Source of the DNA: Actinomycetota bacterium | GTDB taxonomy: Bacteria > Actinomycetota > Geothermincolia > Fen-727 > Anoxymicrobiaceae | DNA length: 64,000 nt | Assembly: GCA_018831265.1 (NCBI GenBank) | Contig: JAHJCO010000019.1 | Location: 104,534 to 168,533 of the forward strand | Direction: 5' to 3' | Shown here: piece by piece, positions 13,374 to 14,640 of the stretch | Numbering within the stretch: the stretch's first letter is position 1 | Layout: each line of letters begins with the position of its first letter | The notes under the pieces: generated by a model | Told to the model about the DNA's origin: nothing | Databases searched by the model: none | What the model saw: only the letters and a program-made list of their open reading frames with translations | Translations under genes and position numbers: made by a program

Positions 13374-14417
13374 CTAACCTTTCCGCGTCCGGGCGATCCG
13401 CTGCGCCGCGTTCAAGATTACACCCGCCAGGGCCATGCCGGCCATGACCGGCACGTATCTGTATATCTCCCGGCGGACGCCGCTTGGTGAGGTGCAGGGG
13501 GTCGCACCCGTGAAGTTCAGCGCGATGAACGCGCTCAGCGGCGGCAGCCCGAGCATGTAGGAGGCCGCCCGCGCGGCCTTTCCCGGGACGCCCGAGCCGT
13601 TGTCGTCGAGGAGGGACGCGGACGCCGCGGCGACGGCGACGGCTCCTCCCAGCATGAACCCCTTCACGCTGTAGTCCTTCGCCGGCAGGTAGGGTAAAAG
13701 GGCTGGGACCCCGACCAGGCCGGCCACGGCGGCCCCCAGCAGACCGGCCGCGGCGAGCGGTCCGTCGAGGAAGTAGGCTCCCAGAGAGAGCGCGGCCGCG
13801 GCGGGAAGACCCTGGGTCGCCTCGACGGGGACCAGCACGATGCGGTCCTTGAAGTCGAACCGTATCCGGCGCATCTGGGGGGTCGCCCTGCCCTCGCGGA
13901 GGAACCCGGGCAGGTCCTCGGCCCTGATGGGCCCGTACTCCACCTTGAAGCCTGAGCGCATCCGCGCCTCGTGTGCGCTCACACCGGTCGCTCCCAGCTG
14001 CGGGACGATCACCACGCGTCCCTCGACCACGTCGGCGAGCCCGGTGCTCTCTATCCTGGAGACCAGCTCGTCGGTCCCGAAGGTACCCTTGCCGGCGGCG
14101 CACCACACGTTGATGCCGTCGGTGTCCAGCACCAGGATATAGGCGTCGATACCGGAAAGCGCGGAGCGAAGGGCGTCGAAGGAGAGCCGGTAGTTCGCGG
14201 TCACGAACACGGGCGAGGAAGGGCCCGCGCCCCCGAGCCTGTACAGGCCGGGCTCGACCCGCCAGTCGTTCCTCTTGGCTCCCAGCCTCGCGGCCAGGTG
14301 GACCAGGTGATCGTGCACGGTGAGATCGGGGACGGTCTGTCTGATGTCGGGGCTCTTCTCTTCCACCACGTCCTCCCGGCTATCCTGTGATGTCTTTGAG
14401 GACCGGCCCCAGCACAC
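13374..14417 (-). CDS. hgcA: HgcA, the corrinoid protein of the mercury-methylation pair. CFeSP-like domain with the cap-helix motif NVWCAAGK, plus a C-terminal TM domain.
   Basis: GINVWCAAGKGTFGT is present. The C-terminal ~120 aa forms 4-5 TM helices. The exact start is uncertain because the ORF overlaps the upstream small gene by 38 nt. Confidence 0.85.
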   Translation of the reverse strand: MCWGRSSKTSQDSREDVVEEKSPDIRQTVPDLTVHDHLVHLAARLGAKRNDWRVEPGLYRLGGAGPSSPVFVTANYRLSFDALRSALSGIDAYILVLDTDGINVWCAAGKGTFGTDELVSRIESTGLADVVEGRVVIVPQLGATGVSAHEARMRSGFKVEYGPIRAEDLPGFLREGRATPQMRRIRFDFKDRIVLVPVEATQGLPAAAALSLGAYFLDGPLAAAGLLGAAVAGLVGVPALLPYLPAKDYSVKGFMLGGAVAVAAASASLLDDNGSGVPGKAARAASYMLGLPPLSAFIALNFTGATPCTSPSGVRREIYRYVPVMAGMALAGVILNAAQRIARTRKG

Positions 14418-14640
14418 CTTTGACCATCTCGGTGAGCGCGTCCGCCTTGACCAGGGTGATGCAGCACACCTCTCCGTCCCTCTCGTGGGTCACCACAGCA
14501 AGCTTGTCGCCGGGCTTGATCCCCGCGCGGCTCCGGACGTCCTTGGGCAGGACCATCTGGCCCCGCTCGTCAACGTTGAGCACCGACTCCACCCTGCAGG
14601 TGGTGACCGGCTCGCAACAGGTCTTGCTCTTTGCGGCCAA
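14380..14640 (-). CDS. Small AbrB/SpoVT (swapped-hairpin) domain protein with two vicinal-cysteine pairs (TCCEPVTTC ... EVCCI). Apparent TTG start with a strong AAGGAGG SD.
   Basis: RGQMVLPKDVRSRAGIKPGDKLAV matches the AbrB/MazE-like core. Overlaps the hgcA 5' end. Confidence 0.5.
   Translation of the reverse strand: MAAKSKTCCEPVTTCRVESVLNVDERGQMVLPKDVRSRAGIKPGDKLAVVTHERDGEVCCITLVKADALTEMVKGVLGPVLKDITG

Follow-up and report, generated by a model that had tools for sequence, protein, structure and literature searches.

We analyzed a stretch of 64,000 nucleotides from an actinobacterial metagenome-assembled genome (MAG; GenBank assembly GCA_018831265.1, contig JAHJCO010000019.1, positions 104,534 to 168,533 of the forward strand), here called the window, with a focus on hgcC, which opens a compact hgcC-hgcA-hgcB operon. 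The product of hgcC is a member of the curated, functionally uncharacterized HgcC family. Members of this family carry near-invariant cysteines, their promoters carry arrays of a TCWGA pentamer with a 9-bp period, and the family alternates between two partners: it is not specific to hgcAB, and most close relatives precede the arsenite methyltransferase gene arsM, a point missing from the first-pass annotation of this DNA. We found none of these three features in the searchable literature, and they make a regulator hypothesis directly testable. On balance, we are inclined to view HgcC as an autoregulated AbrB-fold repressor that would release the methylation operon when its thiols bind a metal(loid).

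The hgcC gene, its family and its fold

The hgcC coding sequence occupies positions 14380 to 14640 on the minus strand and encodes a small AbrB/SpoVT-fold protein of 86 amino acids (aa), MAAKSKTCCEPVTTCRVESVLNVDERGQMVLPKDVRSRAGIKPGDKLAVVTHERDGEVCCITLVKADALTEMVKGVLGPVLKDITG, a description that draws on hidden Markov model (HMM) matches, identity to a GenBank protein and an AlphaFold2 (AF2) model. In the list of open reading frames (ORFs) of the window, the frame runs from 14640 to 14380 with a TAG stop codon at 14382-14380; the TTG start codon at 14640-14638 was read directly in the window sequence, as was a Shine-Dalgarno (SD) sequence, AAGGAGG (14648-14654, minus strand), 7 nt ahead of the TTG. 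The first-pass annotation had described this ORF without stating its strand, and its coordinates, SD, start codon, cysteines and hgcA neighbor were all borne out, but not the 38-nt overlap with hgcA that it had added. The cysteines are C8-C9, C15 and C59-C60, and the core of the protein is VDERGQMVLPKDVRSRAGIKPGDKLAV. Codons for the N-terminal cysteine tail C8-C9...C15 (TCCEPVTTC) lie at 14596-14619 and those for C59-C60, the vicinal pair with which the last beta-strand begins, at 14461-14466, both on the minus strand and both marked by conservation in homologues. A protein identical to HgcC of the window is present in GenBank, from an Actinobacteria MAG, and with 1323 database homologues and conserved cysteines the reading frame is far from a chance ORF.

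The window protein matched the NCBIfam model NF040962, "HgcAB-associated protein HgcC," with 121.3 bits (cutoff, 70; E = 1.1e-35). This match is full length, residues 14 to 83 aligning with positions 1 to 70 of the 70-position profile, and the gene lies near hgcA and hgcB, as the model description calls for. Scores also exceeded the cutoffs of Pfam MazE_antitoxin PF04014 (32.5 versus 24.7 bits) and of the AbrB family model TIGR01439 (40.6 versus 28.3 bits). The label "HgcAB-associated protein HgcC" is already in use for relatives in GenBank. An AbrB/PrlF/MazE-like gene immediately ahead of hgcA was also described by Zhang et al. 2023 (PMC10349881), who saw it on 14 of 35 contigs and in 8 of 31 confirmed methylators. 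Those authors called the gene a putative, mainly archaeal regulator linked to toxin-antitoxin systems, a view repeated in a 2026 paper, and the cysteines go unmentioned in Zhang et al. Given the curated model, the named relatives and this report, the first-pass annotation was wrong to hold that such a protein had not been reported; in its interpretation, the AbrB fold and the conserved cysteine pairs stood, whereas the novelty and the hgcA overlap did not. In sources on the NF040962 family and in Zhang et al., we found no description of the function of HgcC, its operator or the role of its cysteines, and the searchable literature yielded no paper that uses the name HgcC or ties such a protein to arsM.

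The assignment to the swapped-hairpin superfamily rests on several agreeing lines of evidence. A profile of 120 homologues searched against the Protein Data Bank (PDB) matched the N-terminal domain of SpoVT (2ro5, E = 6e-5), the archaeal AbrB-family structures 5itj and 2l66, and the N-terminal domain of AbrB. An AF2 model built from a 120-homologue alignment (pLDDT, 82.5) leaves residues 1 to 9 disordered and places a helix at 33-39, a hairpin at 47-54/57-65 and a C-terminal helix at 66-85; the loop, short helix and beta-hairpin that make up the monomer topology of this superfamily are all present in it. When the model was compared with the PDB by Foldseek, the top 17 matches all belonged to the AbrB/SpoVT/Sso7c4/C68/MazE superfamily (probability, 0.72 to 1.0; TM(target) up to 0.76), with E values no better than 0.02 to 0.6 because the domain is small (50 residues). 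R36 is invariant in 150 of 150 distant representatives, and D24, G27, Q28, P32 and K33 are each kept in at least 97%. There were no domain fusions among the 150 best representatives, all of which are stand-alone proteins of 65 to 140 aa. HMM scores above cutoff, PDB profile matches, AF2 and Foldseek thus agree with the AbrB/SpoVT swapped-hairpin fold proposed in the first-pass annotation. As modeled, HgcC is a stand-alone, presumably DNA-binding protein of this type of ~90 aa. Its N-terminal tail is rich in Cys and predicted to be disordered, its last beta-strand holds a CC pair, and a conserved helix forms the C terminus.

By HMM, PDB profile and Foldseek, HgcC shares its fold with AbrB, Abh, SpoVT-N and archaeal Sso7c4, and it keeps the G-x-x-x-x-P-K/x-x-x-R core of AbrB and SpoVT. 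It differs from them in its Cys-rich N-terminal tail, in the CC that replaces a hydrophobic pair of the last strand, and in ending in a single conserved helix where AbrB has a C-domain and SpoVT a GAF domain. In the PDB profile search, C59-C60 align with the hydrophobic pair (I-L/I-I) of the last strand in SpoVT and AbrB. Of the AbrB DNA-binding residues, only the equivalent of R23 is kept in HgcC, as R36.

Alternation between hgcAB and arsM, and a repeat array at the promoter

With one genome scanned per species, at least 542 genomes had a relative of HgcC, and the best 80 loci (51 to 77% identity) were kept. The bacterial loci belong to Actinomycetota, Nitrospirota, Desulfobacterota, Chloroflexota, Zixibacteria and Latescibacterota, and further loci to Methanoregula, Methanothrix, Methanoperedens and Thermoplasmata. 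At 30 of the 80, hgcA and hgcB lie directly downstream on the same strand, so that an hgcC-like ORF is conserved upstream of hgcA in related genomes, as the first-pass reading required; 21 of these 30 loci are bacterial, in contrast to the "mainly archaeal" distribution given by Zhang et al. Another 49 loci instead carry, always on the same strand and with a median gap of 30 nt, arsM for an arsenite methyltransferase of ~275 aa, and at the last one the contig ends 62 bp past the hgcC-like gene. ArsM was identified by NF008823 (356.9 bits; cutoff, 263), an N-terminal CC…CC tail and the motifs GCGNP, NCVINL and GC. The window itself has no arsM in its 64 kb. Its hgcC differs in nothing from NF040962 HgcC and the gene of Zhang et al., its product scoring above cutoff and the gene lying directly upstream of hgcAB, but the family is broader than its name. 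Nine arsM-linked proteins scored 117 to 124 bits on NF040962, as high as the hgcAB-linked ones, and the name therefore over-specifies the context.

In a neighbor-joining (NJ) tree of the core, the hgcAB-linked and arsM-linked classes interleave. The actinobacterial hgcAB clade that includes the window protein is sister to an actinobacterial arsM-linked protein, the hgcAB-linked proteins of Methanoperedens are sister to the arsM-linked ones of the same group, and in 9 of 80 cases the nearest neighbor comes from the opposite class. Beyond this two- or three-gene module, no wider neighborhood is conserved in the 80 loci, and the genes past arsM are heterogeneous.

We note that the NCBIfam equivalog name HgcC is being given to arsM-adjacent proteins: the products of the 49 arsM-linked loci (L010 to L078; e.g., L027, 3692-4795) will be annotated as HgcC with no hgcAB within ~4 kb. 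The cultured Desulfoferrobacter suflitae DRH4 carries two hgcC-like-arsM pairs (L034 and L045; contigs 9 and 18), each with CTGA/TCAG repeats upstream, and is a possible experimental system.

These contexts bear on the suggestion, made by database labels and by Zhang et al. 2023, that the protein is the antitoxin of a type II toxin-antitoxin system. MazE/PrlF antitoxins are of the same superfamily as HgcC, MazE_antitoxin is the best-matching Pfam name, relatives carry the JGI label "antitoxin PrlF," and there are weak matches to NCBIfam PrlF and MazE models. All of these lie far below cutoff, however (PrlF, 16.2 bits versus 125; MazE (Deinococcus), 18.0 versus 65; doc_partner, 18.4 versus 55.9), and such antitoxins differ from HgcC in having a cognate toxin gene. 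The downstream gene on the same strand is hgcA or arsM at 79 of the 80 loci, with no toxin gene, and the upstream gene in the window is divergent. Moreover, the C terminus is a helix conserved across the family rather than a variable toxin-binding tail. With no toxin gene adjoining and the specific antitoxin models far below cutoff, we rejected an antitoxin role, which we consider highly improbable.

In the 100 nt upstream of hgcC-like genes, TCAGA, AATCAG and AATCAGA/CTGATTA were enriched 13- to 66-fold. At least three copies of [AT]TCAG/CTGA[AT] occurred in this interval at 85% of 81 loci, compared with 0.9% of shuffles and 2.3% of random windows from the same loci. Start-to-start distances between the 4-nt cores were 9 (same orientation), 10 (TCAG then CTGA) or 8 (CTGA then TCAG), and multiples of these, and the repeat is therefore a quasi-palindromic pentamer, TCWGA, with a constant 9-bp period. 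In-phase runs of at least three pentamers were present at 52 of the 81 loci and in 0 of 2430 shuffles; for runs of at least two, the counts were 76 of 81 and 21 of 2430 (0.9%). Thirty-seven arrays lay within 130 nt upstream of hgcC-like starts and none elsewhere in the 559 kb of these loci. Thus, the array exists at hgcC-like promoters and is specific to them, in hgcAB-linked and arsM-linked loci alike, which lends indirect support to DNA binding by HgcC. The commonest bacterial arrangement has the first TCWGA beginning 22 nt past a consensus TTGACA, so that the array spans the -10 element, +1 and the region up to the SD; in methanogens and Methanoperedens, the pentamers flank a TATA-like box.

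In the window, a putative operator of three pentamers, TCTGA-cttt-ACTGA-ataa-TCAGA (TCTGActttACTGAataaTCAGA; 14678-14656, minus strand; 9-bp period), is the only match in the 64 kb, where 0.05 was expected. It lies immediately between the hgcC SD and a weak sigma-70-like promoter (14676-14704, minus strand) that we read as TTGCAA (14704-14699), 17 nt and TATTCT (14681-14676), the -10 element overlapping the first pentamer. This putative promoter was assigned by analogy with those of the relatives because the consensus scan reported nothing.

MraZ and the omega/CopG-type repressors offer parallels for such an arrangement. MraZ has an AbrB-like fold and binds tandem TGGGN repeats with a 10-bp period, and omega/CopG repressors polymerize on repeat arrays. 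As proposed for HgcC, these are small beta-sheet DNA binders, apparently autoregulatory, with three to five short repeats at fixed spacing over the promoter; HgcC differs in its quasi-palindromic TCWGA repeat with a 9-bp period, its single AbrB-like domain and its cysteines. We know of no crisp DNA consensus for AbrB, unlike the presumed, sharply defined 9-bp-period array of HgcC.

Conserved cysteines and a proposed mechanism

Among the 120 closest database proteins (56 to 92% identity), C60 is conserved in 100%, C59 in 97%, C8 and C9 in 85% each, and C15 in 70%, while 34% have a Cys at position 14. All 81 genomic family members have the internal CC and at least two Cys in the N-terminal tail, where the patterns include CC-CC, CC-C, CC and C-C. 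With a threshold of E ≤ 1e-10, the family falls into 357 clusters of 50% identity; among the 150 best cluster representatives, 113 have the CC, 136 have C60 and 104 have C15. On the evidence of these three samples, conserved thiols are a strong, though not absolute, feature of the family, and the two cysteine pairs pointed out in the first-pass annotation are conserved features rather than noise. Similar CC or CU tails occur on the partner enzymes, namely at the N terminus of ArsM, in the N-terminal tails of HgcA in relatives and in the C-terminal CC of HgcB. The CC-CC tail is found in 25 of 49 arsM-linked and 4 of 31 hgcAB-linked proteins (L001 to L080), the latter more often having CC-C or CC alone; this difference could reflect a different ligand or simply phylogeny.

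Our proposal for how these elements might work together is as follows. One two-fold-symmetric HgcC dimer would bind each quasi-palindromic TCWGA pentamer, and three to five dimers would align and polymerize along the 9-bp-period array; the conserved C-terminal helix could plausibly provide the contact between dimers. Since the array covers -10/+1 in bacteria and flanks the TATA box in archaea, array-bound HgcC would block transcription of hgcC and of the methylation genes behind it. The ligand of the conserved thiols would then be a thiophilic metal(loid), either As(III) or Hg(II) and possibly methylated species, whose binding would release HgcC from the DNA as in ArsR-type repressors, although on an unrelated fold. 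One regulator-operator module would thereby drive hgcAB or arsM, depending on the genome. We infer autoregulatory repression as the most economical reading because HgcC is the only predicted DNA-binding protein of the module and because the array, which overlaps the promoter, accompanies the gene in both bacteria and archaea. An effector of the As(III)/Hg(II) type seems likeliest because the downstream genes are two soft-metal(loid) methylation systems and the vicinal thiols resemble the tails of ArsM, HgcA and HgcB. The idea of a thiol-based regulator in the first-pass annotation was reasonable, and it is better supported now.

A precedent for arsenic-responsive control of hgcAB is known from Pseudodesulfovibrio mercurii ND132, in which an arsenic-responsive ArsR-like repressor is cotranscribed with hgcAB (bioRxiv 10.1101/2022.10.17.512643). 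Like HgcC, the ArsR/SmtB regulators, including that of ND132, are small Cys-bearing products of the first gene in operons upstream of hgcAB or arsM; in both, the ligand probably binds at vicinal cysteines, and the link between hgcAB and arsenic is common to both. The winged helix of ArsR/SmtB and the swapped hairpin of HgcC are nonetheless unrelated folds, and the likeness is functional only. In a search of Pfam and NCBIfam at E ≤ 0.01, HgcC had no match to the ArsR models (PF01022/PF12840).

Several observations weigh against a metal(loid)-released repressor. The promoter hexamers in the window are weak (8 of 12 positions) and fall below the threshold of the promoter/terminator consensus scan of 12800-15000, which reported nothing, and the middle pentamer is ACTGA rather than TCWGA. 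About 25% of the distant representatives lack one or both of C59 and C60, and the thiols are therefore dispensable for the fold and for some members. Adjacent cysteines in a beta-strand face opposite sides, which makes it awkward for one chain to chelate an ion by itself. Proteins of the superfamily are obligate homodimers with an interleaved swapped-hairpin barrel, whereas our AF2 model is a monomer, and the placement of C59/C60 in a dimer and the distances to the tail cysteines lie outside it. The AbrB residues R8, R15 and R24, classically needed for DNA binding, are not conserved in HgcC. Finally, the 80 loci were chosen for their similarity to an hgcAB-linked query rather than drawn at random from the at least 542 genomes, and the NJ tree rests on 69 columns.

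The resemblance between the cysteine motifs of HgcC and those of its partners also suggests a metallochaperone or delivery accessory that would pass Hg(II) or As(III) from its CC motifs to the thiol/selenol tails of HgcA/HgcB or ArsM, with or without a regulatory role. Its tail motif, CC-x-P...C/CC, is like the N-terminal tail of ArsM (SCCSPLKSCCGS), the HgcA tails of relatives (SCCGEPSP...LC-U) and the C-terminal CC of HgcB, and the sharing of motifs by donor and acceptor is typical of metal trafficking. Coupling of the gene to that of the enzyme is tight and may be translational, and because HgcA of the window is without the Cys/Sec tail of its relatives, a supply of thiols in trans is conceivable. 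Yet the fold and the best-conserved residues are those of DNA-binding AbrB/SpoVT domains, and a highly specific promoter array accompanies the gene in bacteria and archaea, which a pure chaperone would leave unexplained. We therefore regard delivery of metal(loid)s as a rather unlikely role.

The operator evidence would fit equally well a DNA-binding sensor of redox or thiol status, acting by disulfide formation or S-thiolation, or a holder of Fe-S or Zn, that couples the methylation genes to anoxia or thiol status. Four to six Cys per 90 aa and hosts that are all anaerobes are in keeping with such a sensor. HgcAB is an oxygen-sensitive corrinoid/Fe-S system, and the glutathionylation of cyanobacterial cyAbrB2 is a precedent for thiol modification of an AbrB-type protein. 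What speaks against it is the identity of the partners: all but one of the 80 loci have only hgcAB or arsM downstream, and as these are the two known soft-metal(loid) methylation systems, they suggest that the common denominator is a class of substrate and not oxygen. ArsM, moreover, is an S-adenosylmethionine (SAM) enzyme without special oxygen sensitivity, and vicinal CC pairs and CC-x(n)-CC tails typically serve as ligands for As(III) or Hg(II), as in ArsR, ArsM and the MerA tail. Redox sensing thus appears improbable, slightly more so than metal(loid) delivery, and we retain the metal(loid)-responsive repressor as our working model.

More tentatively, the HgcC family might constitute an unrecognized class of thiol-based metal(loid) sensors on an AbrB fold, with its own TCWGA operator in bacteria and archaea, as a cassette repeatedly exchanged between arsM and hgcAB; we consider this broader proposal possible but would not yet lean on it. 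If it is true, cells place the genes for mercury methylation in the same metal(loid) response, probably to arsenic, as those for arsenic methylation, and after the ArsR-like regulator of ND132, HgcC would be a second, independent support for a native link of HgcAB to arsenic or soft-metalloid chemistry. The control of hgcAB expression and the purpose of HgcAB are open questions in mercury biogeochemistry. The abundance of hgcA genes or transcripts is a poor predictor of methylmercury production, and to our knowledge, the only hgcAB regulator that has been tested is an ArsR-like protein of one deltaproteobacterium. Many uncultured methylators, among them Actinomycetota, Nitrospirota, Desulfobacterota and methanogens, have hgcC ahead of hgcAB, and the family, with the same operator and near-invariant cysteines, stands more often ahead of arsM. 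A regulator role can be tested cheaply on a defined 23-bp site, and the TCWGA/9-bp array is a sequence signature for predicting regulated promoters in metagenomes.

The hgcA start and the surrounding region

Downstream of hgcC, hgcA (13374-14369, minus strand) encodes the corrinoid protein of mercury methylation, 331 aa from GTG 14369 with GTG 14366 as an alternative start, and hgcB (13082-13369, minus strand) encodes a 95-aa 2x[4Fe-4S] ferredoxin ending in CC (...GGACC). HgcA scored 382.6 bits on NF040863 (cutoff, 275) and contains the NVWCAAGKGTF motif, and HgcB scored 106.8 bits on NF040864 (cutoff, 99). The SD of hgcA, GGGAGGA (14371-14377, minus strand), lies 2 nt past the hgcC stop and precedes both GTG codons, of which GTG 14366 has the better spacing. 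The gaps are 10 to 13 nt from hgcC to hgcA and 4 nt from the hgcA stop to hgcB, with all genes on the same strand. The promoter/terminator scan of 12800-15000 found no terminator-like site between the genes of the operon, and an Rfam search of 12800-15200 at E ≤ 1 found no riboswitch or other known RNA element.

The 38-nt overlap of hgcC with hgcA in the first-pass annotation needs an hgcA start at GTG 14417, the first in-frame GTG of the longest ORF. Public gene calls on identical sequence (NCBI GCA_018824995.1; Logan assemblies SRR2544004 and SRR2540949) give the 331-aa HgcA from GTG 14369, 10 nt past the hgcC stop, and the HgcA profile match begins only at residue 26 of the long ORF. Relatives repeat the layout of a stop codon, GGAG (or GAGG), 7 to 15 nt and a start codon, and in them stop codons within hgcC close the hgcA frame. 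In view of the public calls, the GGGAGGA site, the start of the profile match and the layout in relatives, the overlap is an artefact of ORF calling.

A more radical alternative is that the small ORF is spurious and that the region is the 5' end of hgcA, encoding an N-terminal extension, perhaps with UGA read as selenocysteine. An N-terminal Cys-Sec extension that annotation misses is present in many HgcA proteins (Haft 2022, bioRxiv 10.1101/2022.07.06.499078), and 17 codons ahead of the likely start are open in the hgcA frame. However, the codon before the upstream TGA in the hgcA frame is for Trp and not Cys, and this TGA falls within the conserved hgcC frame without a start codon or SD, from which it follows that the region is hgcC and not hgcA. 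The protein in the hgcC frame is kept at 55 to 92% identity across phyla, and the CU tail of relatives is encoded after the hgcC stop rather than within hgcC. Conservation of the hgcC frame and the Trp-TGA context led us to reject such an extension, whose probability we consider negligible.

The tail itself can be seen in seven actinobacterial relatives (L001, L003, L005, L006, L007, L008 and L071), in which hgcA starts ~10 nt after hgcC. Their hgcA genes contain an in-frame TGA in a conserved KP-C-TGA-GGCCC context, read as C-U-GPPDTAGP, so that the stretch from hgcC to the corrinoid domain codes for a Cys-Sec tail (…KPC-U-GPPDTAGP…). This N-terminal tail of HgcA has already been described (Haft 2022). 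Other lineages have Cys-rich HgcA tails in the same place, for example ECCCSGESVPCCSGK in L004, whereas HgcA of the window (14366-14420) is without a Cys/Sec N-terminal tail. Two hgcAB-linked loci have other genes inserted between hgcC and hgcA: an ORF like an extracytoplasmic function (ECF)-type sigma factor together with an AhpD-like CxxC protein in L021 (4144-5576), and a SAM-methyltransferase only 29% identical to ArsM in L032 (676-1149).

Upstream of hgcC in the window, a 267-bp intergenic region is followed by a divergent Fe-S protein gene and a PadR gene (16022-16600), neither of which is present in any of the 80 related hgcC loci. The Fe-S protein (14908-16005, plus strand) has 365 aa, two 4Fe-4S motifs and the run ICCCCSCCCG, and a paralogue with 35% identity over 360 aa is encoded ~30 kb away (45294-46418, minus strand). 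An inverted repeat with 23-nt arms (14848-14870 and 14905-14927; 87% complementary; 34 nt apart) covers the start region of the Fe-S gene and could be a leader RNA hairpin or a protein-binding site; it has no Rfam match. At 14781-14811 and 14742-14773, a palindrome, TGTAGCA-N17-TGCTACA, stands beside an AT-rich island of overlapping palindromes (TATATACCACAT/ATGTAATATATA) in GC-rich surroundings. The two may be the promoter or operator of the divergent gene, and they are not shared by the hgcC leaders of relatives. On the other side of the operon, 250 nt past hgcB, a gene at 8491-12828 (minus strand) encodes a polytopic membrane protein of 1445 aa that has a zinc-ribbon-like motif (CxxC…CxxC) at its N terminus and weak tetratricopeptide repeat (TPR) matches, and this gene also follows hgcB in the other public copies L081 and L082.

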